64,000 nt of DNA from Yuukianura sp. NJ FZ-2021 (GCA_046563655.1 CM102287.1:496001-560000), one strand, 5' to 3'; positions 48,001-64,000 are shown, numbered from the stretch's first letter. Numbers and translations: made by a program. Notes: a model not told the origin generated them from the letters alone.

Positions 48001-51000
48001 TTATTACATTTTCTAAATCAAAATCGAACATTCAGCATTATTTGTTATTTTTATTAAAATTTTTAGGAAATACTTTTTTATGTCATACTACCACCTTGCA
48101 CTTCCAATAAAGCACACCTGAATAACTGGTGTTCAACAATAATCTGGAATTATATTTTAGCCCAACTCCACTATGCAACAAGTGCATAAATCTAACTGTC
48201 ATTTTGGTATAAACTAATGTGGGAACTATACAACGAAGTTTTAAACATACTGAAAAGTGGAATTTATGCCTTGTTATCGCTTATAACCATCTGCAAGGAA
48301 CGCATCTAATACCGGTCCACTTTGTCGTAGTGCATCAACGACTATTACACACGGTGAACCACTTGTTGTCAGCCTTCATTTTTGAGCACAAAGGAGAAGT
48401 GCCGGTGAAATGACAAGCTCGCCCTCACTACAGATACCAACCAGTACTCATTTTGACACGATGAATCACAATGACTCCGACGGCAATGGAACTTCAGGGG
48501 ATCCCATTATTACATTTTCTAAATCAAAATCGAACATTCAGCATTATTTGTTATTTTTATTAAAATTTTTAGGAAATACTTTTTTATGTCATACTACCAC
48601 CTTGCACTTCCAATAAAGCACACCTGAATAACTGGTGTTCAACAATAATCTGGAATTATATTTTAGCCCAACTCCACTATGCAACAAGTGCATAAATCTA
48701 ACTGTCATTTTGGTATAAACTAATGTGGGAACTATACAACGAAGTTTTAAACATACTGAAAAGTGGAATTTATGCCTTGTTATCGCTTATAACCATCTTC
48801 AAATAACGCATCTAATACCGGTCCACTTTGTCGTAGTGCATCAACGACTATTACACACGGTGAACCACTTGTTGTCAGCCTTAATTTTTGAGCACAAAGG
48901 AGAAGTGCCGGTGAAATGACAAGCTCGCCCTCACTACAGTTACCAACCAGTACTCATTTTGACACTACGAATCACAATGACTCCGACGGCAATGGAACTT
49001 CAGGGGATCCCATTATTACATTTTCTAAATCAAAATCGAACATTCAGCATTATTTGTTATTTTGATTAAAATTTTTAGGAAATACTTTTTTATGTCATAC
49101 TACCACCTTGCACTTCCAATAAAGCACACCTGAATAACTGGTGTTCAACAATAATCTGGAATTATATTTTAGCCCAACTCCACTATGCAACAAGTGCATA
49201 AATCTAACTGTCATTTTGGTATAAACTAATGTGGGAACTATACAACGAAGTTTTAAACATACTGAAAAGTGGAATTTATGCCTTGTTATCGCTTATAACC
49301 ATCTTCAAATAACGCATCTAATACCGGTCCACTTTGTCGTAGTGCATCAACGACTATTACACACGGTGAACCACTTGTTGTCAGCCTTAATTTTTGAGCA
49401 CAAAGGAGAAGTGCCGGTGAAATGACAAGCTCGCCCTCACTACAGTTACCAACCAGTACTCATTTTGACACTACGAATCACAATGACTCCGACGGCAATG
49501 GAACTTCAGGGGATCCCATTATTACATTTTCTAAATCAAAATCGAACATTCAGCATTATTTGTTATTTTGATTAAAATTGTTGGAAAGACTTTTTTGTCA
49601 TACTACCACCTTGCACTTCCAATAAAGCACACCTGAATAACTGGTGTTCAATATTAATCTGGAATTATATTTTAGCCCAACTTCACTATGCAACAAGTGC
49701 ATAAATCTAACTGTCATTTTGGTATAAACTAATGTGGGAACTATACAACAAAGTTTTAAACATACTGAAAAGTGGAATTTATGCCTTGTTATCGCTTATA
49801 GCCATCTGCAAGGAACGCATCTAATACCGGTCCACTTTGTCGTAGTGCATCAACGACTATTACACACGGTGAACCACTTGTTGTCAGCCTTAATTTTTGA
49901 GCACAAAGGAGAAGTGCCGGTGAAATGACAAGCTCGCCCTCACTACAGTTACCAACCAGTACTCATTTTGACACTACGAATCACAATGACTCCGACGGCA
50001 ATGGAACTTCAGGGGATCCCTTTATTACATTTTCTAAATCAAAATCGAACATTCAGCATTATTTGTTATTTTGATTAAAATTTTTAGGAAATATTTTTTA
50101 TGTCATATTACCACCTTGCACTTCTAATAAAGCACACCTGAATAACTGGTGTTCAACAATAATCTGGAATTATATTTTAGCCCAACTCCACTATGCAACA
50201 AGTGCATAAATCTAACTGTCATTTTGGTATAAACTAATGTGGGAACTATACAACGAAGTTTTAAACATACTGAAAAGTGGAATTTATGCCTTGTTATCGC
50301 TTATAACCATCTGCAAGGAACGAATCTAATACCGGTCCACTTTATCGTAGTGCATCAACGACTATTACACACGGTGAACCACTTGTTGTCAGCCTTAATT
50401 TTTGAGCACAAAGGAGAAGTGCCGGTGAAATGACAAGCTCGCCCTCACTACAGATACCAACCAGTACTCATTTTGACACTACGAATCACAATGACTCCGA
50501 CGGCAATGGAACTTCAGGGGATCCCATTATTACATTTTCTAAATCAAAATCGAACATTCAGCATTATTTGTTATTTTGATTAAAATTTTTAGGAAATACT
50601 TTTTTATGTCATACTACCACCTTGCACTTCCAATAAAGCACACCTGAATAACTGGTGTTCAACAATAATCTGGAATTATATTTTAGCCCAACTCAACTAT
50701 GCAACAAGTGCATAAATCTAACTGTCATTTTGGTATAAACTAATGTTGGAACTATACAACGAAGTTTTAAACATACTGAAAAGTGGAATTTATGCCTTGT
50801 TATCGCTTATAACCATCTTCAAATAACGCATCTAATACCGGTCCACTTTGTCGTAGTGCATCAACGACTATTACACATGGTGAACCACTTGTTGTCAGCC
50901 TTAATTTTTGAGCACAAAGGAGAAGTGCCGGTGAAATGACAAGCTCGCCCTCACTACAGTTACCAACCAGTACTCATTTTGACACTACGAATCACAATGA

Positions 51001-52565
51001 CTCCGACGGCAATGGAACTTCAGGGGATCCCATTATTACATTTTCTAAATCAAAATCGAACATTCAGCATTATTTGTTATTTTGATTAAAATTGTTGGAA
51101 AGACTTTTTTGTCATACTACCACCTTGCACTTCCAATAAAGCACACCTGAATAACTGGTGTTCAATATTAATCTGGAATTATATTTTAGCCCAACTTCAC
51201 TATGCAACAAGTGCATAAATCTAACTGTCATTTTGGTATCAACTAATGTGGGAACTATACAACAAAGTTTTAAACATACTGAAAAATGGAATTTATGCCT
51301 TGTTGTCGCTTATAACCATCTTCATGGAACGCATCTAATACCGGTACACTTTGTCGTAGTGCATCAACGACTATTACACACGGTGAACCACTTGTTGTCA
51401 GCCTTCATCTTTGAGCACAAAGGAGAAGTGCCGGTGAAATGACAAGCTCGCCATCACTACAGATACCTGCCAGTACTCATTTTGACACTACGAATCACAA
51501 TGACTCCGACTACAATGGAACTTCAGGGGATCCCATTATTACATTTTCTAAATCAAAATCGAACATTCAGCATTATTTGTTATTTTTATTAAAATTTTTA
51601 GGAAATACTTTTTTATGTCATACTACCACCTTGCACTTCCAATAAAGCACACCTGAATAACTGGTGTTCAACAATAATCTGGAATTATATTTTAGCCCAA
51701 CTCCACTATGCAACAAGTGCATAAATCTAACTGTCATTTTGGTATAAACTAATGTGGGAACTATACAACGAAGTTTTAAACATACTGAAAAGTGGACTTT
51801 ATGCCTTGTTATCGCTTATAACCATCCTCAAGTAACGCATCTAATACCGGTCCACTTTGTCGTAGTGCATCAACGACTATTACACACGGTGAACCACTTG
51901 TTGTCAGCCTTCATCTTTGAGCACAAAGGAGAAGTGCCGGTGAAATGACAAGCTCGCCCTCACTACAGATACCTGCCAGTACTCATTTTGACACTACGAA
52001 TCACAATGACTCCGACGGCAATGGAACTTCAGGGGATCCCATTATTACATTTTCTAAATCAAAATCGAACATTCAGCATTATTTGTTATTTTGATTAAAA
52101 TTTTTAGGAAATACTTTTTTATGTCATACTACCACCTTGCACTTCCAATAAAGCACACCTGAATAACTGGTGTTCAACAATAATCTGGAATTATATTTTA
52201 GCCCAACTCCACTATGCAACAAGTGCATAAATCTAACTGTCATTTTGGTATAAACTAATGTGGGAACTATACAACGAAGTTTTAAACATACTGAAAAGTG
52301 GAATTTATGCCTTGTTATCGCTTATAACCATCTTCAAATAACGCATCTAATACCGGTCCACTTTGTCGTAGTGCATCAACGACTATTACACACGGTGAAC
52401 CACTTGTTGTCAGCCTTCATTTTTGAGCACAAAGGAGAAGTGCCGGTGAAATGACAAGCTCGCCCTCACTACAGATACCAACCAGTACTCATTTTGACAC
52501 GATGAATCACAATGACTCCGACGGCAATGGAACTTCAGGGGTTCCCATTATTACATTTTCTACAT
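1..52565. repeat. Tandem satellite array, 506-bp unit, about 104 copies in window (open at left edge)
   Basis: The same sequence recurs every 506 bp (ORF-track starts 154, 660, 1166 ... 52260). Copies differ by a few recurrent SNPs and rare 1-4 bp indels. The last unit is cut after ...ttacattttctacat at 52565. Confidence 0.99.
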
Positions 52566-52936
52566 TGAAACCTCTCCCATCTCTCACTCTAACTATCATC
52601 GTATCATCATCTAATCTACATTCTCCTACGCTATCAATGGCGATAGAGAAATAATCAATCAATCTAACGATAATCCATAATCATAAATATCCAATAAAAA
52701 AAAGAGAAAGAACGGAATACCTATTCCTCATGAAGTTGCTCCCTAACTGATCTATGTTAGAACGATGACCTACTAGTCTAGCACTAGTCCTGGGGTTTCC
52801 TAAGTTCTTGGATTGGTTGGTGGAAGTCGGTAGGAATGAAAGTGAAAGTAGCTACACTTCAATGCTCTTTAAACATTTGTGGGCATAACCCAGCAGGAGG
52901 ACCTGAGTACTTTTACTAGTAAAGTGCTGTGGCTTT

Positions 52937-52945
52937 ACATACCTG
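52937..52945 (-). promoter_or_regulatory. Putative major splice donor in LTR (CAG|GTATGT)
   Basis: Near-consensus donor on the element strand about 270 nt downstream of the putative initiator, with no ATG in between. Confidence 0.55.
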
Positions 52946-53135
52946 AGGTTTTGGCCTGGCCTTGGCGCTACCCCTTACTGATGTTTGTATTGACCTCTCG
53001 ACCTCTCCTTGGGTTGGCTGGAGACTTTGGTTGGTGGTGGCACTCCCCGGGTTGACCCACGGTGGCTGGAGCGTCTCGTTGGAAGTTAGAAGTTGAAAGA
53101 AGTGAAGAAAAGAAATAGAAGTGAAAGTAGTTGCT

Positions 53136-53141
53136 TTTAAT
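53136..53141 (-). terminator. Putative polyadenylation signal ATTAAA in LTR
   Basis: Minus-strand ATTAAA followed ~15 nt later by a long T/C-rich tract (cttctatttcttttcttcacttctttc), downstream of the putative start site as expected for an R region. Confidence 0.5.
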
Positions 53142-53208
53142 TTAGACTTAAGGGCCAGGCTGGCCGAGTGCCTACTAGAAGTTAAGAGTTAAGTAAAAGC
53201 TACCGGAC

Positions 53209-53247
53209 AACTGACCAAGAGGTCGGACTACCGATCCTCTATTTATC
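53209..53247 (-). promoter_or_regulatory. Putative LTR core promoter: TATA-like GATAAATA plus initiator TCAGTT
   Basis: Minus-strand GATAAATA at 53247-53240 and TCAGTT at 53214-53209, about 33 nt apart. TCAGTY is the arthropod-type Inr consensus. Confidence 0.55.
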
Positions 53248-53677
53248 CCTAAAGATTAGACGATCTGAACATGCAAGAACATGATCTTCGAACTCATTAA
53301 CTAATAAACATGTCAAATTAATCTACACTTTGTAACTACAAAGTTTCAAAATCATCAAGTTTTCTAGTCTTTTTCTTATCTATGTTCTTACCAAAAAGAC
53401 ATAAACTTTGTCTTAGAATTTGAATTAGTAATGCTAACTAAGTGAAACTTAAGTCACGTCAGATTACTCATGACTTGACTTTTACTGTTGATTGCGAAAA
53501 GTCATAAACTTTTCGCAGTTGATAAGGGTGATCAGTCAGCACCCTGGGGTCGTCTCCCTCCTGATTAGGGAACACGCGAAAAAGGAATGAACTAATTCAT
53601 TCCCTTCTCCTGTGCTCCAGTGAGAAATCTGCCAATCAATACTTTAAAATTGATTGACAGCTTTCTCCACTGTTACA

Positions 53678-53691
53678 TCTTCCCCAACTTA
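53678..53691 (-). promoter_or_regulatory. Polypurine tract (plus-strand primer site)
   Basis: Minus-strand TAAGTTGGGGAAGA directly adjoining the TGTAACA start of the LTR. Confidence 0.85.
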
Positions 53692-53996
53692 GTCATGAGC
53701 CGTCCTCGGCGAATCCAAGTGTAACGAACTTAACTATCCTAACCTAACAAAACTTTTGTGACAAAGTCACGATTTCCGCGTGCCGTGATAACCTAGTAGC
53801 TAAGACATGATAAGCAGAGGTCACAAAGTGCGTTATCCTGAAGTGCCTAACTCATCCTATCAGTCTAGGACATTCTACAAATAAATTTACTACGTCTGCT
53901 GTCTCAAGCCCTCTCTACTAGGGCATATCTCTGTCATTAACCGTTACATGTACCGCAACAAGATGTACTACATTAAATTACTGAAGTCGTCAACAT

Positions 53997-55565
53997 TCAA
54001 TCCCAAGGATTCCGCTCTGGAGAGGGGATGGGGTGTCGGTTGTGCCAAGGGGTACTGGAAGGCGGAGGGGGTGTGTCACCTGGAGGGTGTAGATCTTCCC
54101 TTGTACCTCGTCTGTTTGCGCTCGGCGCTGCTTCCGGTCGACTCGATCGGGAACTCTTCCAAAGAAGGATTCCGGTCATCTGTTTCTGCATCGTGGCCAT
54201 CTGCTGCTCCAAAATTCGGACTCGCTCACGTAGCAGGGAACGTTCATCTCGATCGTGTTCTCTGGCCTCTCGGTGTCTCTGGTTCCGCTCTCGCCTGGCC
54301 TCACGCTTCTCATGGCGTTCCTGAGTCTTTGGTGCTTTGACCTGGACAACCTCCGGAATGAATTCTTGTATACGACGCTTCCCAACGGCAAGACAACTTT
54401 TTGACGAATGAAGAGGGTTTGGGACCATTGACGTAACTGGCACCTCTTTAGCTTTGGATGACGGTGGGCGAATAATGGCGTCGTTGAAGTCAAACTTGAT
54501 CTCGTACTCATGATACAAGGATGGCATGATACGTTCATATGCATCCGGCGGGATGCCTTCGGGTTTCGGGAGGCGACGAAATCTGCGCAGTACTCCTCGG
54601 ACAAACTCATCATTACTGCATCGCTTCCATACTTCAATATCGGCTTCAAACAAACTGATAGGGCAATCAAGATTTCGAGCTATGGTCACTACCGTTGTAT
54701 GAAGACATTGCAATCTGGTGGAGCATCCAAGATAAGTTGATTCAAATGCAGGGCGTGGGACGGAGAGAGCCACGTCTTTTTCTGTCTCATGTAGCCACCG
54801 GTCAATGATTCGCGTTGTCTGGTTCATGAAGTCTCGTCGTAGGGAGTCAGTAATGCCTAGCCAAACGTTCAGTAATTGCTCTGCAAAATCGGTCATCAGC
54901 TGGAAGTGTTCTATTACATGAGAGCTGAACTGAGTGTCACAAACGGTTTGGTAGTCTACCACTGCTACGTTTTCATCAATGTACTGCTGGCACAAGGCTG
55001 CATAACTGAAGGATGTAGTTGAGTCAGAGATTCCCACGAGTGGAAGTTTAGCGATATCCACTATACCCGCTGCTGTTATGCCAAAATCTCTAAGTAATGC
55101 CTTAAACTGACGTTCCCCTTGATACGTAATCTTCGCAATTTCTGAGGATTCCATCAAAATTCTTAAAGGCTCCTGCAGCTGCTTGGCGGTCTCTTTGGCG
55201 TCAATGACAAAACCTCGCTCTGGAGTCATGATTGCGATATGGGTGGTTTCCCCAAGATATGTCTGTTCGTTCTGGAACGCATAGATCACCATCGGTTTCC
55301 GATCATAGATCTTCCTGATGTTAGCCAGGAGTGTGGTTTCCTCCCTGATTATCTCGGGCAAGATCTGTGGTCTGTCTGATCTCAACGGCAAGTGTAACAG
55401 CTTATTACGCAAAGTAGAGCTGGCCCTCATCTCCATCATCTCTTTCTTTAGCTTGGGTTGAATGACCTCAATGTCGATATTTTTCTTATGTCTAATTTTA
55501 TAATATTCTGTAGGTGTTGTAAATAGCCTAATCTTATGCTGCTTTACATTCAGTATCTTTTGCAT
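53997..55565 (-). CDS. Accessory ORF F, 522 aa: Rrp6/RNase D-like (DEDDy-fold) exonuclease-like domain lacking catalytic residues, degenerate HRDC-like segment, basic region plus coiled coil, Pro-rich tail
   Basis: Motifs TYLGETTHIAIMTPERGFVID, LMESSEIAKITYQGERQFKALLRDFGI, IVDIAKL, SYAALCQQY and TIARNLD are colinear with Rrp6/RNase D motifs as recalled from memory. The ATG is preceded by tatttcaattccag. Confidence 0.75.
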   Translation of the reverse strand: MQKILNVKQHKIRLFTTPTEYYKIRHKKNIDIEVIQPKLKKEMMEMRASSTLRNKLLHLPLRSDRPQILPEIIREETTLLANIRKIYDRKPMVIYAFQNEQTYLGETTHIAIMTPERGFVIDAKETAKQLQEPLRILMESSEIAKITYQGERQFKALLRDFGITAAGIVDIAKLPLVGISDSTTSFSYAALCQQYIDENVAVVDYQTVCDTQFSSHVIEHFQLMTDFAEQLLNVWLGITDSLRRDFMNQTTRIIDRWLHETEKDVALSVPRPAFESTYLGCSTRLQCLHTTVVTIARNLDCPISLFEADIEVWKRCSNDEFVRGVLRRFRRLPKPEGIPPDAYERIMPSLYHEYEIKFDFNDAIIRPPSSKAKEVPVTSMVPNPLHSSKSCLAVGKRRIQEFIPEVVQVKAPKTQERHEKREARRERNQRHREAREHDRDERSLLRERVRILEQQMATMQKQMTGILLWKSSRSSRPEAAPSANRRGTREDLHPPGDTPPPPSSTPWHNRHPIPSPERNPWD

Positions 55566-55581
55566 TCTGGAATTGAAATAT

Positions 55582-56199
55582 TTACTTAGATTTAGTATTT
55601 ACACTTGCATTTGCACTTACAGCACTACTAGGTCCTGCTGCTGGTGACTCTTCTAACAATTTCAGCTTTCGGAGCACGTTAAACTTTAACGTTATGGCAT
55701 TAAATAATTCTGCGTGCACGAATAAATTTGTGCAAGTGTGAGTACGCTCCATGATATGCCACAACCCTACGATACTGTCGTATGGCTTCTTTGTGGTAAG
55801 ATCAATACAAACGTGTCCTGGATACATATAGAAATATTGAGGAGGATAAAAGCAAAATTGTTCTACTACCTCCATAATATCTTCTAAGCGCAGTGTTAAG
55901 AAGAAATCTACTGAGACTGCTACTTGTGACCGAAATTCGGTTTTCTGCCGTGCTATTTCTTCGAGCACTTCTATCAAGCTCCCTTTTGCTCGTGCACTCA
56001 CGACGTCTTCAATCGTCATGAAGCAAACGTGTCTTATTACACGTCCCATGGTTGGAATAATTTTAACATTTTTCAAAATTGTTCCAAAAGAATACAGGAG
56101 CCCGTCTCCTGACCCGTCTCCCTGAATCTGTCCTCTATTTCTGATGGACACTAAGCTTCGCACTCCGCGAATGCTTGGTACAATTTCCTGTACTTCCAC
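55582..56199 (-). CDS. Accessory ORF E, unknown function (start uncertain: frame open from 56250, first in-frame ATG at 56049)
   Basis: Frame of more than 200 codons on the element strand, tightly packed between ORFs D and F; no family recognised. Confidence 0.6.
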   Translation of the reverse strand: MEVQEIVPSIRGVRSLVSIRNRGQIQGDGSGDGLLYSFGTILKNVKIIPTMGRVIRHVCFMTIEDVVSARAKGSLIEVLEEIARQKTEFRSQVAVSVDFFLTLRLEDIMEVVEQFCFYPPQYFYMYPGHVCIDLTTKKPYDSIVGLWHIMERTHTCTNLFVHAELFNAITLKFNVLRKLKLLEESPAAGPSSAVSANASVNTKSK

Positions 56200-56340
56200 A
56201 ACTTCTGGTTGTGCAAATTTTTCACATATAAGTTGTGCGAATCTATCTAATTAATGGAAAAGCATATTGTGACATCCGTCTATATTCTAAAAATGACGTG
56301 TCGTTCATCTTGGTGAGTCTTCTTGATGACTCGGAATCTG

Positions 56341-57273
56341 CTATTCGCTTTCGTCTGTGTGATCGGACGATTCGGAGCTATTGGAGCTGCTACTAAAGAA
56401 CGGATCGCTGTTCCTGTGATAGTAAGATCGAAATTCTGCGTCATCATCCCATCCCATTTTTAGATATCTCATATTTCTCAAATGACTGTAATGGGCTTGA
56501 CGAGATTTCAACGATTTCTCGCGTTCTCTCCATATTACATTATGATAGTACATAAAGAAATCAATTTCCGAAGGTCTACCCCCATTGTACATCAAAATTG
56601 TGTGAACTTCTATCATTCGAGTCTTTAAGAATTCGGCTTCCCCGAACAAGATAGCATCCGCGGCTTCATGCGTTCTAACAATTCTACCTTTGTAAACTGG
56701 TACGTGCTGATATCGTTGTGCCAAATGGATCTTTTCATCTATATTTAGGGAAATGTAAACTCCGATGTTCAGAGCAAGATAAACCCCATCTACGTTATCG
56801 ACAATTTGTGTATGGATGGGATGACTGTGTTTTCTCATTCCCTTCGAAAACCTGTATACAGCCTCATGATGTGAGTATGGTAAAAGATAACTATCTTGAA
56901 CTAGTCCTGTCTTCGGATAATACCACATTTGAAATTCCTTGATCTTACCCTCAATGTAGTGGAGGCTATATTGCATATGTTTCCACATGGGTTGCTCTAT
57001 CTCTGGGAAACGGATTGATAACATACTCATTTCAATAGGGCTAAAACAACGAGCCTGACTGACTCTATGTTCCAATTCGCGTTGTTTCTCAACTCTCGAT
57101 TTCGTTGACGCTAGAATTGACTCGATATCTTTTACGTCTTGTAGGTACCCCTTACTAGGTTTGTACTCGCTCGCGGCGATCTCTTTCCAATGTTGTATCC
57201 ACTCAATAGTGGAGGGATCTCGGAATCTGTGCATCTGACTTTTCCAGTAATCGGGAGCTTGTCTCCTTGCCAT
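56341..57273 (-). CDS. Accessory ORF D, 310 aa, unknown function, Ser/acidic C-terminal tail
   Basis: Intact ATG-to-stop ORF. The ATG lies 2 nt after the acceptor-like tttaacttttag. No family recognised. Confidence 0.75.
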   Translation of the reverse strand: MARRQAPDYWKSQMHRFRDPSTIEWIQHWKEIAASEYKPSKGYLQDVKDIESILASTKSRVEKQRELEHRVSQARCFSPIEMSMLSIRFPEIEQPMWKHMQYSLHYIEGKIKEFQMWYYPKTGLVQDSYLLPYSHHEAVYRFSKGMRKHSHPIHTQIVDNVDGVYLALNIGVYISLNIDEKIHLAQRYQHVPVYKGRIVRTHEAADAILFGEAEFLKTRMIEVHTILMYNGGRPSEIDFFMYYHNVIWREREKSLKSRQAHYSHLRNMRYLKMGWDDDAEFRSYYHRNSDPFFSSSSNSSESSDHTDESE

Positions 57274-57308
57274 ATCTAAAAGTTAAATTATAATTACGGG
57301 AAAATCAT

Positions 57309-57322
57309 TCTTCCCCAACTTA
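57309..57322 (-). promoter_or_regulatory. Internal exact copy of the polypurine tract
   Basis: tcttccccaactta is identical (14/14) to 53678-53691. Confidence 0.7.
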
Positions 57323-57798
57323 TTTTCCTTTTGTTATACTTTCGGCATTTCTAATGTCGGTCCTGAGAGTTCGCTAAATGCAGTTTTTCTGAAGTTTCTG
57401 ACATTTATGACTCTTAAATTACTCTTTTTCCCATTGACTGTGATCTCTTAGTGACCTCATCACACTATCGCAAGCGAAATGTCCAGAACTTATTATAATA
57501 GAAAATCCTAAAAGAAGAAACGGCTATCCTGATAGAATTCCAGAGGTGTTGGTGATGTCAATGCGACTCCGACCATCCAAATCTCCGGACCTAAATTCTC
57601 CTGACTTTTCAACTTTCCCACAATTACGTTAACGTACAGCGTTAAGTTTTACGTTAACTTTTTCTGGAATTAATAAAAAAAAATCCAAAGCTTCTGACAT
57701 GGATGACTTATATCCTAAATAATGTGATTATGAAATCGGCGATGGTAGAGCTGAGTCAAATTTGAACGAGGAGGTTTGTTTACGACCTGCTCGTATGC

Positions 57799-60171
57799 TT
57801 AAACACGAGTATCTACGCTGGTAGATTCTTGAGCTGGTTCTTCCAACTCACTCACAGCGCTCTTAATCAAGTCCACAATTTTGTCAGCTTGTGGAGAATG
57901 CAAAATGATTTTCAGAGGTGGACGCCCTTGTTCAGCGTCTAAATTAAACTGAACCCTCGTTCCTACGAATGGTTCGGAAATATCCATTTTTCGCACTTTA
58001 TCTCGTTCCTCTCTCTGTTTCCTAAGTTGGTTCCTTTTACGCCAGTAAAACCAGGTGAGTCCTCCCAAAAGTACGAGTAATAAAACTAACCACATGACGA
58101 CGGTGAACATGTTAATAGCATGATGCAATTCTACGCCTGTGGGGTTTGCAACGGCTCCTCCTATCTGTCCTGCAAAGGGAACTCCAAAGACCATTCCCCC
58201 GTTTGCCATGAACTGTTTGTACAAGAGTAGCGCAACGCCTACCGAGAGTACTATGTTCCAAATTATCAACGCTGTATTTGTTGATGGGGCCGTTATTTGA
58301 ATTAATTTCGGAACCATCATGGACTTCAAATGACTCATTTCCGTTAGGTTCAACCTTGGAGAACCCAAATCCCAAGTCTCGTTAAATATCGTTTTCAAGT
58401 CGGGATACAACTTCTTCTCAGAGTTTCTGCCAAATCAAGTAGTGTTCAACAACACATCCATTCGTGCCATCATTGCCGGAATTACCAGATTTACTCGAGG
58501 TCTTTCTGCCAAACCGATAGGACATGGATACGGTGGTTTAATAGGCATTCTCCCCGGCAACTGCAACTCACAGTCGCATGCCAACTTAACTTCTATGCTT
58601 CCTATACCATGTGGTGGTGGCTCCAGTGGAAAATCAATATCATCATCTCTATTATGACATCTTATGTTCATGGTTTCGGTAGCCCCTGTAACTGCAAAAG
58701 TATGATGATCTAGTTGTGAAATCGTTAACTCGCTCTTGTCTGCCAAACATTCGAAAAGACAATACTCATTTAATTCCGCTAGTGATGCACCTCTCAGCAA
58801 CTTTTGGGCACACATGTAACCAGTGAGTGGATCCGAATTAAATTGAGGGATCAAACACAAGCCTGACTCTGGTTTACATTGTTGTAATTGAGTTCCCTGA
58901 ATTGTGACCAACGTATCGTTACTTAATGCCAGATATGTGGGTGCATGTTGCAGAATGCACGTACTACCCTTGTAACTGAATGGTATGTTAGTCATTGCGT
59001 ACAATTTCCAGTTTGCGGCCTTACGCCTGATTGGAATTCTCAATCTGAAAATCGTTCGTCCTTCCGTAGTAAAGGCACAATCAGCGATCTTTAATTTGTA
59101 ATATCTCGAAATTTCAGATGGTGGGACAACTAACTCATATCCATCGTTTTGCAATTGTTTTGACAATTCCCCCAAATCTGCAATCAATCGTTTGAATGGA
59201 ATTGCTAAGATAGAAATGGTTCCTGCTCTACAGTGATCTTGGAGATCTTTAAATCTCATAATCTCCATGATCGAATTAAGGTGTTCATAAATCTGGACAA
59301 AAGTCATTTGATGTGAAAGTAACTCTTTTTCCAACCGTTTCACATCTTTTGTCAGAGCATCTTCTTCTCCCTGTAATTCTTGTTGTTCGCGCATCGTTAT
59401 TTCAATCTGTCGGTGGACAGAAGCAAAAATGCGAGATGCATTGCCCTGAAACATTTCCAACCCTCCTTTTATGGTCATAAGATTCCGATTTGTTTCCACA
59501 ACTGAATCTTTCATGACAGAAAGAAACAGTTCCATCTTTTCCGAGTTCATGCTAATGTCACTTAAATCTCTTTTAGAAGCCACGCCACAACAGAATGACC
59601 ACCAGTCCCCAATTAAGGTTAAAGGGTTGAATGCCTGAAAATCAAATTCTCTTTTTCCCCGATTCGAAGCCTTGGCCTTGGATGTCTGCTTAGTTCGATT
59701 TAAACGAGCACGATTCCTTGCCTGCTGAATGGCAATCGGTATCTCGTCCAATGATATCAACGGCTTTTCTTTGACAATTTCGTTTCGGGTAGGGCCCATG
59801 TTCTCGTTGGACTTACCTTGATCTTCGCTTATCCCAAACGTACCTGATTCGTCCCTCATTAAGGAATCGGCTATGATATTTCCCAAAATTTCCGATACAT
59901 GTCCGATGGGCCTACGCATTGTGTTTGGGAAAATGCACGTTCCATCCACTTCCGCACATCTATAGGCCTCGAATACGTTTTTCTCAAATTCTCTGAATGA
60001 CACTTGTATGTCGTAGATCAATGGGACCGACGCGGTATACAATTCCGTGTTCCGGATTTCCCGGATCGTTGTTCCGGTTGTCACTCGAACCTCTGTCGGA
60101 GTGATCTGATATGCCACTCCCTTGGCAATAAATCCGATCGTCATCAACGCACTGATCAGTGTGCACGCCAT
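57799..60171 (-). CDS. env: Envelope (class I fusion) glycoprotein, 790 codons with one in-frame TGA at 58437-58435
   Basis: Signal peptide MACTLISALMTIGFIAKGVA, furin site RGKR (59661-59650), hydrophobic fusion-peptide-like FNPLTLIGDWWSFCCGV, heptad-repeat region and Cys-rich ectodomain. The track ORFs 58435-60195 and 57799-58410 are in the same frame, and the second carries the transmembrane segments. Confidence 0.85.
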
Positions 60172-60180
60172 TTTATTTTT

Positions 60181-60206
60181 CTGTACAAGAAGCAAGAAGG
60201 AAAATT
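60181..60206 (-). promoter_or_regulatory. env splice acceptor
   Basis: Minus-strand aattttccttcttgcttcttgtacag|aaaaataaaATG: a long polypyrimidine tract and CAG 9 nt before the signal-peptide ATG. Confidence 0.7.
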
Positions 60207-60255
60207 ATTATGCTAACCTACCTACCTATTGCTAGTGGTTCCTAACACTAAACCA

Positions 60256-61023
60256 CTAGTCAAAATCTCTGAGACTTCGATCTGTTTGACAAATGTATTC
60301 TGCTTTTTCTTCGTCCATATAAAATCCAAAACCTTGAAAAATTCGAAACAAATCATTCCGAATCTGTTGTCGTCTTGGGGACAACGTATCCCAATAAGCC
60401 TGATATCGTATTTGAAACACGTAAGTAAATGGCTTCCATTTGCTTTCTGGTTCTCCCAGTTCGCGTAAAACTTTGGCCAATCGACTGTATGTGAACATGG
60501 TGAAAACATTATGAGGCTTCTTGACACATTTGACGCCAATAAGCCTATCCGAAATTAGTGTTCGCTGTGGAATAACATTCCATTCAGCATCTGCGATTAA
60601 GTCGACCCAACAGTCCACGCTGATATTGATAATTGCACTAGGTTTTAACGTGAATGGACAGTGAATTAAGCGCACGATGTCCGTCATTTCAACATGTTTC
60701 CATTTCATAGGTACTTGAGCCAAGTACCACAACTTCTCGTGTCTAGCTGTTTCCAGTTCATCTACTACATTTACAGTGGGCCGATCTGGGTATCGCTTTC
60801 CACAAAATTCAAACTGCTCGACTATGGAACACCTTGTGTCCATTGTTTTTCTAATAATTAAGGCTATTTCGTTACTAAGTTCGGGAAATGCTTCAGCTAC
60901 ATTGTTTGCGTCTAAAGCGTTGAGTTCTTTTATGATGATTTCTAGGACGTCGAATCCCAAAGCAGTGAAGTGGAGTGGAGTGTATGCAAGCGGCTTCATT
61001 GTAGTCTCGCTTCTCCCTTCCAT
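60256..61023 (-). CDS. Accessory ORF C, 255 aa, divergent paralog of ORFs A and B, F-box-like N-terminus
   Basis: Shares HEKLWYLAQVP, DIVRLIHCPF, YWDTLSPRRQQIR and EYIC blocks with A and B. N-terminal FTALGFDVLEIIIKELNALDA. First ATG at 61023. Confidence 0.8.
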   Translation of the reverse strand: MEGRSETTMKPLAYTPLHFTALGFDVLEIIIKELNALDANNVAEAFPELSNEIALIIRKTMDTRCSIVEQFEFCGKRYPDRPTVNVVDELETARHEKLWYLAQVPMKWKHVEMTDIVRLIHCPFTLKPSAIINISVDCWVDLIADAEWNVIPQRTLISDRLIGVKCVKKPHNVFTMFTYSRLAKVLRELGEPESKWKPFTYVFQIRYQAYWDTLSPRRQQIRNDLFRIFQGFGFYMDEEKAEYICQTDRSLRDFD

Positions 61024-61149
61024 TTCCTTAAATATTATAACCTCTGATATATGCCTTAATATCAAAATCCTAGTTCAAATATTTATTCAACTACTCAAGT
61101 CCTCCTACTAAGGCTACTTGCAGCTATTATGTCTAATGACTTTCAGTTA

Positions 61150-61920
61150 TTACTGATTGTATCTATCAGAAAACCTACACAGAAATTCTACATACTCGTC
61201 TGTAACATCCCTACCATTCTCGGTACATCTTCTCTTATATACAACACGCATACGCCTCTGTCTGAAGCTTAGTGTACTCAGGTACTTATCGTACTCACTT
61301 TTGTATCTGACTAACAATTCTTGTCGCACGGACTCTTTTCCGTTTGTTTCCTCTATGGCGGTTACAATTCGCATAAAGTTAAATGGATACGTCGTTATGA
61401 CATCTTTACGAAAGCTTACTGTCTTGGGCGGCGTACGCCCATACGGTAGATCTGCATGGATGTGGTGTCCTTGAGTTTCAACTAACTCTATGAGCTCGCT
61501 AGCTAGCAAACTTCTAAATGTTTCTACTTTACATACGAAGCCGCAATTCAAAATTCTAAATACATCCATACAACTGAATGGGGCAAATTCTATTGGCAGC
61601 TGTGCCAAGTACCATCGTTTCTCATGATTACAAACACGCATTTCAATTTCACAGTGAAAGGCGTTCGCACTTCCAAACAAATTAAATGTCTCGATTAATT
61701 CATCCCAATTAGTCATGACCTTTTCTATCTCTTTAGCAAATAAGGTTATGATCCTGGGATATGCATGTAAAGCATCGTTGAACTTTGACGCATCTAAAAC
61801 GCTTAGCTTTCTAGCTATACTGATTAGAGGTAGATCGTCCAGTGACGAAATGTTCCTTTGGATGTGAAGACGGCGTTTCTTAGCCGGTTCTCCCTCTGTT
61901 TCTGTGTGCTTCAATTCCAT
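61150..61920 (-). CDS. Accessory ORF B, 256 aa, paralog of A and C, NLS-like PAKKRRL and F-box-like N-terminus
   Basis: LDDLPLISIARKLSVLDASKF, HEKRWYLAQLPI, YPFNF, YKSEYDKYLSTLSFRQRRMR and DEYVEFLC. First ATG at 61920. Confidence 0.85.
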   Translation of the reverse strand: MELKHTETEGEPAKKRRLHIQRNISSLDDLPLISIARKLSVLDASKFNDALHAYPRIITLFAKEIEKVMTNWDELIETFNLFGSANAFHCEIEMRVCNHEKRWYLAQLPIEFAPFSCMDVFRILNCGFVCKVETFRSLLASELIELVETQGHHIHADLPYGRTPPKTVSFRKDVITTYPFNFMRIVTAIEETNGKESVRQELLVRYKSEYDKYLSTLSFRQRRMRVVYKRRCTENGRDVTDEYVEFLCRFSDRYNQ

Positions 61921-61986
61921 AGTTATTCCTACCAAAATTTTGTATTTCTATTCTCAGTTAAATCAGCTTAATGACCACGTTATGTT

Positions 61987-62802
61987 TTACTCAAGACCTC
62001 CTGCTGAGGCTGGGATTTGAAAATCGTAAAGTAGATTTTTCGCATCTGAAAGCTGACACACAAATTCGACATATTCGTCGGAAACATTCCTTTGGTTTTC
62101 GGCACATTCTCTCTTCACAGTCTCCCGCATTTGTCTTTGCCTGGGGCTGAGAGAGTTTAAGTATTTTTCGTATTCACTCTTATAATTCTGCAATAACTGC
62201 TGGTATACTGATTCATCCCCTTTCATCTCTCTCACCACTTGTGCCAATTTGCAGAAATTAAACGGGTAATCCTGAAAATGCTGTTTATGAAATCTGACTG
62301 ACCTAGGGGTTCGTGATCTAAAGCATGCTCCTGCGGAGACTTCTACCTTCAAAGTGTTTACGATTTCTATAAGGTCGTCAGCAGACAAAGCCTTAAAAAC
62401 CTCTGCATCACACCTGAACCCACAGTGTAGGATTCTGAATAAGTCGATATGTCTAACGGGTGTGTGATCAATCGGTATCTGAGACATGTACCATCTCTTC
62501 TCGTGAGATCCGTATTTTTGTTCCGTCTCGAACTGATCAGGGGGTACGAGGCTGAGTAATTCAAATTTTTCTATTACTGTATCCCAGTTGGCCATTGCCC
62601 TATCGATCTCTGTTTCTACTAGTTCTACTACTCTTGGGTACCCTTGAACAGCTTCCTTGAACTTGGAGGCGTCCATTACGCACAGCTTTCTTATAATGCT
62701 GATGAGTGGCAAATCACTCAGTGACGTAAGTTCTCTTTGGATCTGAAGATGGCTTTCCTTTGCCGGTCCGTGTTTGGACACTTCTGTGTTCTTCGAATCC
62801 AT
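61987..62802 (-). CDS. Accessory ORF A, 271 aa, paralog of B and C, F-box-like N-terminus
   Basis: LSDLPLISIIRKLCVMDASKF, HEKRWYMSQIPI, YPFNF, YKSEYEKYLNSLSPRQRQMR and DEYVEFVC. First ATG at 62802. Confidence 0.85.
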   Translation of the reverse strand: MDSKNTEVSKHGPAKESHLQIQRELTSLSDLPLISIIRKLCVMDASKFKEAVQGYPRVVELVETEIDRAMANWDTVIEKFELLSLVPPDQFETEQKYGSHEKRWYMSQIPIDHTPVRHIDLFRILHCGFRCDAEVFKALSADDLIEIVNTLKVEVSAGACFRSRTPRSVRFHKQHFQDYPFNFCKLAQVVREMKGDESVYQQLLQNYKSEYEKYLNSLSPRQRQMRETVKRECAENQRNVSDEYVEFVCQLSDAKNLLYDFQIPASAGGLE

Positions 62803-62929
62803 TGTTTTTCTCAATATCCTGACAAATTTTGTATATCTAAAATTTTTAGTCAATAAGCCTATGGTTTACAGGCCTACAGTTTATATTATCCAACAGCGCT
62901 TGGACACGAAAGATCCAATGTGCAAGGCT

Positions 62930-64000
62930 TTAGTCTAGGAATCTAACTGGTTTTCGGACTACTCGGCCGTACCTTGTCGTAACTACATTTTTCTCTTCGA
63001 CTTTTACTTCTTTATCTTTTAACTCTGCTTGTCTAATCTCTTCATCTTCAGAAGATTCTAAGAACTCTTCAGATTCTACATCAGAGGATTCCACGTCCTC
63101 TTCCAATTCATCGGTTTCCAACTCATTGGGAACATCCGACTCCAACGGTATTTCAAAATTCAAAATATTCGTCAACTCATTTGAAACTGCTCTAGCATTA
63201 TCCTTGCTGATCGAAATTCCTTTCAACTCTTCGGCTAAGTCATCAGAATTTTCTTGGGTGGGTCTATTACAACCGTCTTCCCCAACTTGATCTGCCGCTA
63301 CTCCTGGAGCGGAAAGTCCCTCACAAATGTGAAGTAAATCATCTTCAACATAACGCTTCAAATTTTCAATATGTACTCTAACTGGGACATCATCCGAAGC
63401 CGCACCAACAGGTGAGCAATGATACGCTAAGGGTGAGACCTTCTGTACAACAACATATGGACCTTTATACCGCATGGCCAATTTCCGAGTTCGGCCAGCT
63501 TTGACAACTTTAACTTTAATGAGAACCTTATCTCCAATGTCATATTCCAACGGGAGACGTTTGGGATCGAACAAACCAGCTTGCTTTTTCTGTGCTTTTT
63601 GAATACCAACCCGAGCCAATTCTCTGGCCTCGTGCATTTTACGAATCCGTGATGGGATGTCTTCCCATTGTCGCGATGTATCCAACGCAACGTCAAGAGG
63701 ATGGAACGGATGGCGTCCATACATGATATAATAGCTGCTAAACCCCGTACTCTCTTTGTGAACCGCGGTATTTAGTGCAAAAACAGCAGAACCTAAATAC
63801 CGATCCCAGTCCCTTTGACTCTGCAGCACATAATTAGATAAAATTTCTTCGATACTACGGTTACTTCGTTCAACTAGTCCATTGGTACGACTATGATAAG
63901 GTGTGGAATACAAGTTCACAGTTCCAATCAAAGAATTGAACTGTTTAAAGAAAGATGATCGGAACGTACTAGCATTATCCGTCTGAATTGATTTAAACAC
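62930..64000 (-). CDS. pol: Pol polyprotein C-terminus: Ty3/gypsy integrase core end, GPY/F module, acidic tail (5' truncated by window)
   Basis: IQTDN...YSTPYHSRTNGLVERSN with exactly 35 residues between D and E. Also WDRYL, TGFSSYYIMYGR, YKGPYVV, VHIENLKRY and terminal TRYGRVVRKPVRF. Confidence 0.97.
   Translation of the reverse strand: MFKSIQTDNASTFRSSFFKQFNSLIGTVNLYSTPYHSRTNGLVERSNRSIEEILSNYVLQSQRDWDRYLGSAVFALNTAVHKESTGFSSYYIMYGRHPFHPLDVALDTSRQWEDIPSRIRKMHEARELARVGIQKAQKKQAGLFDPKRLPLEYDIGDKVLIKVKVVKAGRTRKLAMRYKGPYVVVQKVSPLAYHCSPVGAASDDVPVRVHIENLKRYVEDDLLHICEGLSAPGVAADQVGEDGCNRPTQENSDDLAEELKGISISKDNARAVSNELTNILNFEIPLESDVPNELETDELEEDVESSDVESEEFLESSEDEEIRQAELKDKEVKVEEKNVVTTRYGRVVRKPVRFLD

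Follow-up and report, generated by a model that had tools for sequence, protein, structure and literature searches.

Do the open frames that surround env in the retroelement at the end of this window (the whole 64 000-nt stretch of DNA that was analysed) belong to the element and, if so, what do they contribute to it? Reading the minus strand from 64000 to 52566, the 3′ part of an LTR retroelement was found inside a 506-bp satellite, in the order pol tail, A, B, C, F-type env, E, E2, F, polypurine tract (PPT) and a 1112-nt LTR (TG...CA). The frames are tightly packed and all lie on the minus strand of 52566–64000. The window takes in the element from the pol tail to the 3′ LTR, with gag, PR-RT and the 5′ LTR falling beyond its edge, and the visible part would be roughly the 3′ half to two-thirds of the element. 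The reading preferred here, with a probability of about 0.8, is that of a young multi-copy errantivirus-like endogenous retrovirus, probably of an arthropod, whose genome has been enlarged by two cargo modules missing from its nearest known relatives. The features are as follows.

1–52565, no strand: satellite insertion target, 506 bp, 104 units, 97–100% alike among the 30 units listed
52566–53677, minus: 3′ LTR, 1112 nt, TGTAACAG...GGTTTCA, placed from the PPT junction, the satellite break and contig depth
53678–53690, minus: 3′ PPT, directly adjoining TGTAACAG
53997–55565, minus: ORF F, 522 aa, with a DEDDy-fold (Rrp6/RNase D-like) domain at about residues 66–245
55582–56049, minus: ORF E2, 155 aa from its first ATG, no known family
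56152–56250, minus: relic of a dUTPase C-terminus, ~30 residues, with which the E2 frame begins when read from stop to stop
56341–57273, minus: ORF E, 310 aa, of no known family; its tail is acidic and rich in Ser
57309–57321, minus: PPT 13-mer, internal copy 2, 35 nt 5′ of the E ATG
57799–60171, minus: env, baculovirus-F/errantivirus-type class I fusion glycoprotein, from a Baculo_F match and three relatives
60256–61023, minus: ORF C, 255 aa, distant paralog of A and B
61150–61920, minus: ORF B, 256 aa, paralog of A
61987–62802, minus: ORF A, 271 aa, heading a tandem trio of paralogs
62930–64000, minus: 3′ end of pol (integrase core tail, SH3-like domain, acidic C-terminal tail), from Pfam and alignment to the relative L001; the frame leaves the window
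63276–63288, minus: PPT 13-mer AAGTTGGGGAAGA, internal copy 1, within the coding sequence of the pol tail

Identity and boundaries of the element

Over 359 aa the pol tail showed 51% identity to the integrase of L001, a metagenome relative whose pol has the domain order RVT_1, RT_RNaseH, Integrase_H2C2, rve, SH3_Tf2-1. The Pfam SH3_Tf2-1 domain itself was matched at E 8.6e-7 and 29.4 bits, narrowly missing the cut-off of 30, and pol thus ends in a Ty3/gypsy-type integrase. Downstream of pol, as in errantiviruses, lies an F-type env (baculovirus-F/paramyxovirus-F): Pfam Baculo_F matched the frame 58435–60171 with 31.5 bits against a cut-off of 24.1, and three relatives were found at 37–49% identity. 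A single in-frame stop at 58432–58434 breaks env in the window copy; the three intact relatives (717–740 aa) align through the break, and an RGKR-type basic cleavage-type site with a hydrophobic stretch is kept in env and all three. The protein would mediate cell-to-cell entry. A frame D (57799–58338), counted as an accessory gene in the first-pass annotation, was rejected as a separate gene since the alignment of relatives spans the stop; it is the transmembrane C-terminus of env, the membrane-anchor end split off by that one stop.

As in other Ty3/gypsy elements, the LTR has TG...CA ends with a polypurine tract before it. The satellite periodicity stops at 52562–52566, where the LTR ends GGTTTCA. 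This boundary and the copies of the element were examined in DNA contigs of the same organism from three runs (X1–X3) of one study and one sample, which may be the source of the window. Unbroken satellite contigs continued past 52562 (6, 4 and 1 in X1, X2 and X3) and therefore show the empty site. In one contig the LTR end was followed, on the element strand, by AC and TGGCGACCGTGACAGGATT, whose first 17 letters complement the last 17 of an 18-nt CCA-ended mosquito small RNA given in the available part of PMC9184468. Such a junction, with a tRNA-primer-like site directly behind the LTR, would represent a 5′ LTR and PBS of another copy. Replication would proceed as in any LTR retroelement, with a tRNA priming the minus strand beside the 5′ LTR.

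The PPT 13-mer was found as an exact match three times (inside pol, ahead of E and next to the LTR) against 0.15 expected, and three were reached in none of 100 shuffles. The three identical tracts would start plus strands and so cut the 9.3-kb post-pol stretch into shorter pieces, comparable to the action of the lentiviral central PPT. At the pol copy, 6–7 contigs per run depart from the window sequence on both sides of 63277–63310.

The gap of 2758 nt from pol to env holds A, B and C, and that of 4121 nt from env to the LTR holds E, E2 and F, thus the element departs from the errantivirus-type three-gene layout in which pol and env are adjacent. These results support a Ty3/gypsy-type env-bearing LTR element in which additional coding frames flank env on either side and lie within the LTR boundary. 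The order had been given earlier as pol(IN)-A-B-C-env-D-E-F-PPT-LTR, with six extra frames of about 200–520 codons. The tight one-strand chain, the PPT and the LTR stand, but D is part of env and E2 had been overlooked; the count stays at six because D was removed and E2 added, and the sizes become 155–522 codons. The extra frames would be expressed from spliced subgenomic RNAs, and pyrimidine-rich AG sites at most 30 nt from six of the seven ATGs are a weak cue to splicing.

Copies, variants and relatives

Contigs matching the element numbered 427, 697 and 132 in the three runs and were 90–99+% alike. The word depth, a contig depth that differs from copy number, was flat across pol, A, B, C, env, E, E2 and F (370–741 in X1, 171–738 in X2). 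In the two bins lying fully inside the LTR it rose to 1283–2297 (X1) and 1838–1972 (X2), 2–4 times the interior. The element is a repeated family and not a one-off, and the earlier question of whether further copies exist is answered by many contigs 90–99% alike with flat depth over all frames. The host is probably an arthropod.

One loose end carried (CCTAA)n; TTAGG is the arthropod telomere repeat.

The flat depth bears on whether the locus is a single element at all. Two elements, or an element and a gene cluster, could lie adjacent or have been mis-joined, in which case the LTR at 52566–53677 would be foreign to the pol at 62930–64000. The location of the 5′ half beyond the window is compatible with this, as are a G+C content of 0.48 in F against 0.40–0.43 elsewhere and a 520-nt non-coding spacer between env and E, which has its own PPT copy and could mark an old element end. 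However, the PPT 13-mer recurs unchanged inside pol, ahead of E and next to the LTR, and the depth is flat over the spacer as well as over all frames. The spacer was bridged by contigs over 57105–58212 in all three runs, with a 76-nt piece replaced, and no LTR-like rise in contig depth was seen at 57300–57800. Such a composite locus is thus considered very improbable, and the extra frames are treated below as parts of one element.

Copies with deletions were also present among the contigs. A joint from 55518 to 56363 drops 844 nt, with 37 other letters in between, and reached a depth of 295.6 in X1 and 44 in X3; E2 is missing from this well-represented variant. A separate form has a 6897-nt internal deletion.

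Two metagenome relatives cover the pol–env junction. In L001 env starts 77 nt after pol, and ~465 nt after env there is TGTGACAGT, which by eye resembles the start of the window LTR. In L002 the start of env is ~105 nt past the pol tail. No matches to A, B, C, E, E2 or F were found in either. Given that both of the relatives covering the junction do without the extra frames, a lineage-specific gain is indicated. The earlier expectation that gene order might be conserved in relatives is therefore answered only as far as these two go, and in them the extra frames are missing.

The two modules of extra frames

Module 1 is a three-gene family, A, B and C, which arose between pol and env through tandem duplication. 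Identity is 48% between A and B (E 1.6e-88) and 24–26% for the pairs A–C and B–C (E 2e-22 and 5e-15), and 45 columns are invariant across the three genes, all of which are still open at 52–76% divergence. Relatives outside the trio were not found, no known family was matched and a fold search with ORF A gave no call. Module 2, between env and the 3′ PPT, consists of E, of E2 together with a decayed piece of a dUTPase, and of F. For E there was no Pfam match at E ≤ 0.1 and no meaningful PDB match. We infer that A–C and E may be element-specific adaptor proteins.

The E2 frame runs for 222 codons from stop to stop (55585–56250). Its head resembles the C-terminus of dUTPase: of 21 PDB matches, 17 were to the C-terminal 30 residues of dUTPases, with the shrimp enzyme as the best (E 6e-4), though the Pfam dUTPase domain gave only E 0.2. 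We take this region to be that of dUTPase motifs IV–V. In-frame stops sit just upstream of it, and in place of the five motifs in one open frame that a trimeric dUTPase has, only the last ~30 residues are recognisable.

Pfam DNA_pol_A_exo1 matched F with 26.7 bits against a cut-off of 23.6. Only two relatives of F were found among 1.84 billion representative sequences, and a sequence profile matched Rrp6 (E 7e-8) and Egalitarian (E 4e-3) in the PDB. A fold search with a model of F, whose pLDDT is 65–80 over residues 70–173 only, gave 33 chains at Z ≥ 8, by title nearly all exonucleases or polymerases with such a domain. Among them were EXD1 (Z 14.6, rmsd 8.3, 210 aligned), human RRP6 (Z 13.6, rmsd 3.7, 173 aligned), Nibbler (Z 13.4, rmsd 3.5, 180 aligned) and Egalitarian (Z 12.9, rmsd 3.9, 170 aligned). 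By profile and model, the domain in F has the DEDDy 3′–5′ exonuclease fold. It is followed by a basic coiled-coil-like stretch and then a Pro-rich tail.

The Asp-Glu-Asp-Tyr-Asp set of Rrp6, which we take to be the catalytic residues, is not reproduced in F. The ExoI Asp and Glu align, at low posterior, to I94/Y95 and A96; the ExoII Asp aligns at high posterior to Q153, which is invariant in all three family members; and the ExoIII Tyr and Asp align to D and Q. A point against loss of activity is an acidic residue nearby, in the QNE directly after the aligned ExoI position. On this alignment the catalytic positions are apparently replaced and the exonuclease likely inactive. F is then most likely a non-catalytic binder of the 3′ ends of RNA or single-stranded DNA, by analogy with its structural neighbours. 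Such binding would serve the stability, transport or packaging of the element RNA, much as with the inactive DEDD-fold proteins EXD1 and Egalitarian.

Among copies, 13 of the 16 F differences listed, out of 747 differences in all, were synonymous (P between 1e-6 and 3e-5), which supports purifying selection on F. The earlier prediction of dN/dS < 1 for A–F is borne out in this form for F.

These observations bear on how far the extra frames are to be seen as useful. E, E2 and F, and perhaps A–C, might instead be host or foreign DNA that a master copy trapped between its pol or env and its LTR and that is copied along, useless and decaying. L001 and L002 manage without such frames, E2 is deleted in one common variant and the 6897-nt deletion is carried by another, the dUTPase is reduced to a 30-residue relic behind in-frame stops, and F seemingly has no catalytic residues. 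For rotifer elements, the available part of Rodriguez et al. (PMC5408684) likewise describes extra ORFs with no clear within-genome departure from neutrality. Against this, the listed differences in F are mainly synonymous, and A, B and C have stayed open through divergence to 24–48% identity. All six frames are open although env already has a stop in the window copy, and a search for detectable host relatives of the six found none. Useless cargo is therefore judged an unlikely explanation for the frames as a whole. Retention for the benefit of the element is very probable for F, probable for A–C, an even matter for E and doubtful for E2. The stop in env, the E2-less variant and the decayed dUTPase together suggest that part of module 2 may be decaying cargo.

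What the benefit might be is less certain. By analogy with Vif, Vpr or Vpu of lentiviruses, the six proteins could act against host defence. EXD1 and Nibbler of the piRNA pathway and the RNA-surveillance enzyme Rrp6 have the same fold as F, and a fast-diverging three-member family such as A, B and C is the pattern that would be expected in an arms race. But none of the frames was found to resemble a known antagonist, and roles in RNA handling or particle assembly are equally simple and fit the same data, so an anti-defence role is thought improbable. A broader version is rated just as low. Here an arthropod errantivirus branch would have reached lentivirus-like complexity independently, with a genome estimated at ~17–18 kb, three plus-strand priming sites and six accessory genes, among them a dead Rrp6/EXD1-like F and diversifying A/B/C countering host RNA surveillance or the piRNA pathway. 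If true, the element would be the first retrovirus of an invertebrate to have genes dedicated to counter-defence.

Comparison with known systems

Errantiviruses, as described in the available part of PMC13524379 (gypsy, ZAM and Idefix of Drosophila, together with the set that Chary and Hayashi assembled across metazoans), have LTRs, an F-type env behind a Ty3/gypsy-type pol and a tRNA primer site, and they form multi-copy families in which some copies are recent. The enlarged errantivirus-like element preferred here shares these features, its tRNA primer site being putative. Errantiviruses are gag-pol-env, whereas the window element has three genes between pol and env and three frames after env. 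The filters given there set the largest gap at 500 nt for insects and 1000 nt for others and the longest region at 10 kb, thus the layout seen here would have been screened out.

The earlier premise that invertebrate gypsy-type elements are gag-pol-env only was too strong. The bdelloid rotifer LTR elements Juno, Vesta and TelKA carry DEDDy-exonuclease, GDSL and other ORF3s and a dUTPase, according to the available part of Rodriguez, Kenefick and Arkhipova 2017 (PMC5408684). A captured DEDDy-type ORF downstream of pol, a dUTPase and, in one rotifer lineage, an F-type env are common to both. On the rotifer side, as that text has it, there is one ORF3 per family, env and DEDDy occur in separate lineages, the dUTPase is inside pol and the DEDDy catalytic residues (DEED) are intact. 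The window element, in a host that is probably an arthropod, combines env with four orphan frames, the relic of a dUTPase and an ORF of DEDDy fold whose catalytic positions are apparently replaced; F is set beside the rotifer DEDDy ORFs (Juno, Vesta, Athena) by description only. The giant gypsy-like planarian element Burro also has accessory ORFs or domains besides an env homolog and a dUTPase-like motif, but in the available part of PMC6431247 its extras are in a polyprotein of ~5000 aa with env between gag and pol, unlike the separate frames after pol in the window.

Among cellular proteins, F shares its fold with the inactive RNA-binding EXD1 and Egalitarian and with the active Rrp6, Nibbler, RNase D and WRN-exo. 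It differs from them in being element-borne, in its two detectable sequence relatives and in its long extra C-terminal half; a Pfam search of F showed no HRDC domain like that of Rrp6 and no further listed domain.

As in the vertebrate complex retroviruses (lentiviruses, spumaviruses), env is flanked by accessory genes on either side. Such retroviruses express their accessory genes from multiply spliced RNAs and have an extra PPT in the integrase-coding part of pol, and some members have a dUTPase. Unlike Retroviridae, the window element has an integrase tail of the Tf2-1/Ty3 type and an env of the baculovirus-F type, and no resemblance of its accessory frames to retroviral ones was found. Because the integrase is of the Ty3/gypsy type, kinship with vertebrate retroviruses is an analogy only. 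The likeness is one of convergent architecture and not of membership, and the complexity of the element is unusual for the env-bearing Ty3/gypsy group, yet precedented.

Layout of the element and its boundaries

From 64000 down to 52566, the minus strand of the window carries a chain of open frames with a G+C content of 0.40-0.46. The features, in element order, are as follows.

64000-62930, minus strand: pol tail (the integrase end of pol), continuing beyond the window end
62802-61987, minus strand: extra frame A, 271 aa
61920-61150, minus strand: extra frame B, 256 aa
61023-60256, minus strand: extra frame C, 255 aa
60171-58435, minus strand: env, 578 aa up to an in-frame stop
58338-57799, minus strand: D of the first-pass annotation, 179 aa
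57798-57274, minus strand: env-E spacer, 525 nt
57273-56341, minus strand: extra frame E, 310 aa
56049-55582, minus strand: extra frame E2, 155 aa (222 codons from stop to stop)
55565-53997, minus strand: extra frame F, 522 aa
53690-53678, minus strand: polypurine tract (PPT), 13 nt
53677-52566, minus strand: LTR, 1112 nt

The PPT, AAGTTGGGGAAGA, immediately adjoins the LTR start, TGTAACAG, and the LTR terminates in GGTTTCA at 52566, so that the coordinates and the PPT-LTR call of the first-pass annotation were correct. Positions 1-52565 are occupied by a satellite of uniform G+C (0.37), made up of 104 head-to-tail copies of a 506-bp unit which are 97-100% alike among the 30 units listed. The satellite periodicity stops at 52562-52566. 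The empty site was also observed: satellite contigs from three public DNA runs, X1, X2 and X3, continue as satellite at 52562 (6, 4 and 1 contigs, respectively). Within the satellite, spacings of 507 and 509 nt occur occasionally and the comparison at a lag of one unit breaks for one unit length at ∼51100-51600, which is read as a single indel. The word depth of the satellite in X1 was 181478, hundreds of times that of the element.

The pol tail contains an SH3 domain of the Tf2-1 type scoring 29.4 bits, slightly below the Pfam cut-off of 30, and shares 51% identity over 359 aa with the integrase of L001, a metagenome locus whose pol comprises RVT_1, RNase H, Integrase_H2C2, rve and SH3_Tf2-1. 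The PPT 13-mer is present as three exact minus-strand copies, at 63288-63276 in the pol tail, at 57321-57309, 35 nt upstream of the ATG of E, and at 53690-53678 at the LTR. At a tolerance of up to one mismatch, 0.15 matches were expected and three were reached in 0 of 100 shuffles. Since the same 13-mer is found in the pol tail and at the LTR, the LTR is tied to pol. Lentiviruses have a central PPT, and by analogy the internal copies suggest additional plus-strand starts in a long genome. A 33-nt island at 63277-63310, in which the internal PPT copy lies, is all that matches in 6-7 contigs of each of X1 and X2; these contigs diverge to either side of it, with low agreement. The island is thus common to copies that have otherwise diverged, and has the look of a small segment preserved across distinct element families. 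No copy of the 13-mer below 3 mismatches was found in L001.

The env protein scored above the Pfam cut-off for Baculo_F (31.5 bits versus 24.1) and three homologs of 717-740 aa, two from JGI and one from ENA, showed 37-49% identity to it. A scan of viral contigs with the env family found no relative. D had been proposed as a separate gene. However, the last ∼150 residues of the three env homologs align with D, and a single in-frame stop, at 58432-58434, parts env from D with conserved sequence continuing across it in translation. Thus env is a single gene of ∼790 codons, broken here, and D is its C-terminal part. The earlier count of six extra frames holds (A, B, C, E, E2 and F) but the membership changes, as D is removed and the overlooked E2 takes its place. 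These frames form two cargo modules, A-B-C between pol and env and E, E2 (with a dUTPase relic) and F between env and the PPT.

A, B, C, env, E and E2 all start in one common reading frame, the spacings between successive start codons from A to E2 being 882, 897, 852, 2898 and 1224 nt, each a multiple of 3 (chance ∼(1/3)^5); pol and F lie in other frames. As there are two in-frame stops between each pair, A, B, C and env are not a read-through arrangement. Plus-strand open frames of 105-130 codons lie over F (53948-54340), C (60776-61111) and B (61157-61474), probably by chance. No Rfam family was found in 50000-64000 and no tRNA gene was found in the window.

The extra proteins

A, B and C are paralogs, with identities of 48% for A-B (E 1.6e-88), 26% for A-C (E 2e-22) and 24% for B-C (E 5e-15), and their alignment has 45 invariant columns. 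All three are open despite this divergence, suggesting that coding capacity has been kept for a long time. None of the three matched a Pfam family above noise and the PDB sequence search gave nothing meaningful. The word-index search with the A/B/C alignment, in which 4419 candidates were scored, and the scan of viral contigs with the family found no relatives. The predicted structure of A was poor (pLDDT 54) and the top fold match, a helical bundle, reached Z 5.0 at best, so no fold was assigned. An LPLISIIRKL-like stretch in A/B/C resembled an F-box by eye; no F-box family was found in Pfam at E≤0.1. For E, there was no Pfam family and no meaningful PDB relative, and a likeness to dUTPase noted by eye received no support from Pfam or PDB.

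The first ∼30 residues of the E2 stop-to-stop frame match the C-terminal end of dUTPase. In the PDB, 17 of the 21 matches to this frame at E≤10 were to dUTPases with the alignment in this position, a shrimp dUTPase ranking first (E 6e-4). The dUTPase family in Pfam reached only E 0.2, and in-frame stops occur immediately upstream. The dUTPase piece at the head of the E2 frame is read as a relic.

F scored above the Pfam cut-off for a 3'-5' exonuclease domain (26.7 bits versus 23.6). An exhaustive phmmer search of 1.84 billion representatives gave two relatives only, P0004 (337 aa, E 1.6e-15) and P0005 (168 aa, E 6e-9). These are encoded on metagenome contigs of 3041 and 9075 nt, respectively, and share the Pfam domain of F. 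The word-index search, the PDB search with F alone and the scan of viral contigs with the F family gave no match. A profile of F and its two relatives gave 20 PDB matches at E≤10, namely Rrp6/EXOSC10 (13 matches, E 7e-8 to 1.3e-6), trypanosome RNase D (two, E ∼1e-3), Egalitarian (two, E 4e-3 and 0.02) and unrelated proteins (three, E 0.32 to 2.2). The predicted structure of F was confident solely at residues 70-173 (pLDDT 65-80). Z≥8 was nevertheless reached by 33 chains in the fold search with this model, those at the top being EXD1, the Pol I exonuclease domain, RRP6, Nibbler, Klenow, Egalitarian, RNase D, WRN and EXD2.

At the residues which we take to be catalytic in Rrp6, the profile alignment places I94/Y95 and A96 of F at the ExoI pair (low posterior), Q153, invariant in 3 of 3 family members, at the ExoII Asp (high posterior), and D and Q at the ExoIII Tyr and Asp. 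These replacements make it probable that F is no nuclease, but QNE, directly after the aligned position, may be a shifted ExoI site. F is under constraint. Among the 16 listed differences between copies of F, with 707 further rows over the whole stretch outside this count, 13 were synonymous and 3 were not, an excess with P of 1e-6 to 3e-5 given a synonymous share of 23-29% for random changes.

Copies, variants and relatives of the element

The copy data come from one public sample, sequenced in three DNA runs within one study and possibly the source of the window's own assembly. Sample contigs were aligned to 52450-64000, giving 427, 697 and 132 contigs in the three runs. The first-pass annotation had proposed a search for other copies, and many diverged ones do exist in this sample, as the contigs fall into three likeness classes (99+%, 95-99% and 90-95%). 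Contig depth is not equal to copy number and so only the contrast between LTR and interior was used. Word depth stayed level from pol through A, B, C, env, E and E2 to F, at 370-741 in X1 and 171-738 in X2, and the two bins fully inside the LTR gave 1283-2297 in X1 and 1838-1972 in X2. The higher LTR depth is as expected if each copy has two LTRs and solo LTRs also exist.

A junction between the element and (CCTAA)n lies at 54792, within F, in one X2 contig; the complementary repeat, TTAGG, is that of arthropod telomeres. This is either a truncated copy beside telomere-type repeats or an interstitial block, and is a weak hint of an arthropod host.

A well represented variant skips from 55518 to 56363, with 844 nt gone and 37 other letters instead (depth 295.6 in X1 and 44 in X3), indicating a group of copies that lack the dUTPase relic and E2 and also the initial codons of F. 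In the env-E spacer, 96 other letters replace 76 nt at 57643-57720 in all three runs. A rarer variant, 56014-62912, skips 6897 nt and runs from the pol end into E2 (X2, depth 37).

One contig runs from the LTR end through AC into TGGCGACCGTGACAGGATT on the element strand, and this joint looks like a primer-binding site beside a 5' LTR. The small RNA matching here presumably has the 3' end of tRNA-Arg. It is a CCA-ended RNA of 18 nt tabulated for a mosquito in PMC9184468, and the first 17 letters of TGGCGACCGTGACAGGATT are the complement of its last 17. A 14-mer of the site had no match in literature text; a 13-mer of the complementary strand matched two articles, of which only this one was relevant.

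In L001 (5702 nt), pol ends at 2700 and an intact env of 723 aa starts at 2777, followed after ∼465 nt by TGTGACAGT, which appears to resemble the start of the element's LTR. In L002, a second metagenome locus (2422 nt), the pol tail is at 18-65 and env starts at 173. No tblastn match to A, B, C, E, E2 or F was found in either locus. The pol-env junction is simple in both of the two relatives covering it, and there is no E-F module in the one relative covering the stretch after env (L001). At 5047-5352, between env and the likely LTR, L001 has a 101-aa open frame, which matches no Pfam family and does not resemble E, E2 or F. Two further loci, L003 and L004, were dropped as relatives because the match (36% identity over 94 aa) looks like chance and because L003 has dense coding on each of its strands, which is not what a retroelement shows.

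Proposed working and comparison with known systems

The architecture and boundary of the element, its status as a family and the constraint on F are matters of observation. A role of the extra proteins against host defences is possible but is supported by none of these findings. The element would follow an ordinary LTR-retroelement cycle in which a tRNA primes beside the 5' LTR and plus strands begin at the three PPTs. The F-type env would mediate entry into neighbouring cells and the extra frames would be expressed through spliced subgenomic RNAs. For 6 of the 7 ATGs (not that of E2), a pyrimidine-rich stretch ending in AG is present ≤30 nt upstream, a weak cue for splicing as such stretches are frequent by chance. 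F would bind the ends of RNA or ssDNA without catalysis, serving the element RNA, A-C and E would be adaptor proteins, and E2 with the dUTPase piece would be decaying cargo. Being nearly without relatives in billions of sequences, the accessory proteins are candidate new virus-host interaction modules, testable one by one.

In invertebrates, the place of retroviruses is taken by env-bearing gypsy-type elements, for which a genome of three genes is the usual description. Chary and Hayashi have made a metazoan-wide survey of such elements (PMC13524379). The element described here is alike in working and belongs with them by pol and env, but departs from the three-gene layout. The filters described there are an intergenic gap of ≤500 nt (insects) or 1000 nt (others) and ≤10 kb overall; with 2758 nt between pol and env, the element would be missed. 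Elements of such a build would thus be uncounted in this, the largest survey. The literature searches turned up no arthropod element of the env-bearing gypsy type that has several accessory genes; the supplementary lists of PMC13524379 may include the host.

Extra ORFs in LTR elements are already known. In rotifers, the ORF3s of Juno and Vesta are reported to encode DEDDy exonucleases with intact catalytic residues, dUTPase lies within pol in three lineages and TelKA has an F-type env (PMC5408684); planarian Burro elements have accessory ORFs (PMC6431247); and in an opinion article the accessory domains given for LTR elements include the DnaQ-like exonuclease (PMC6338049). Lentiviruses share with the element accessory genes around env, an extra PPT in the integrase-coding region and dUTPase, a likeness which is convergent, with no sign of kinship. 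The element of the first-pass annotation is real and much of that reading holds. We rate it as errantivirus-like: two cargo modules and triplicated PPTs accompany a DEDDy-fold protein that is constrained and probably inactive. Its extras amount to a three-member paralog family, that exonuclease-fold protein and a dUTPase relic, together with triplicated plus-strand primers. As a many-copy family with six extra frames, it indicates that gene capture and duplication enlarge such genomes beyond vertebrate retroviruses and rotifers.
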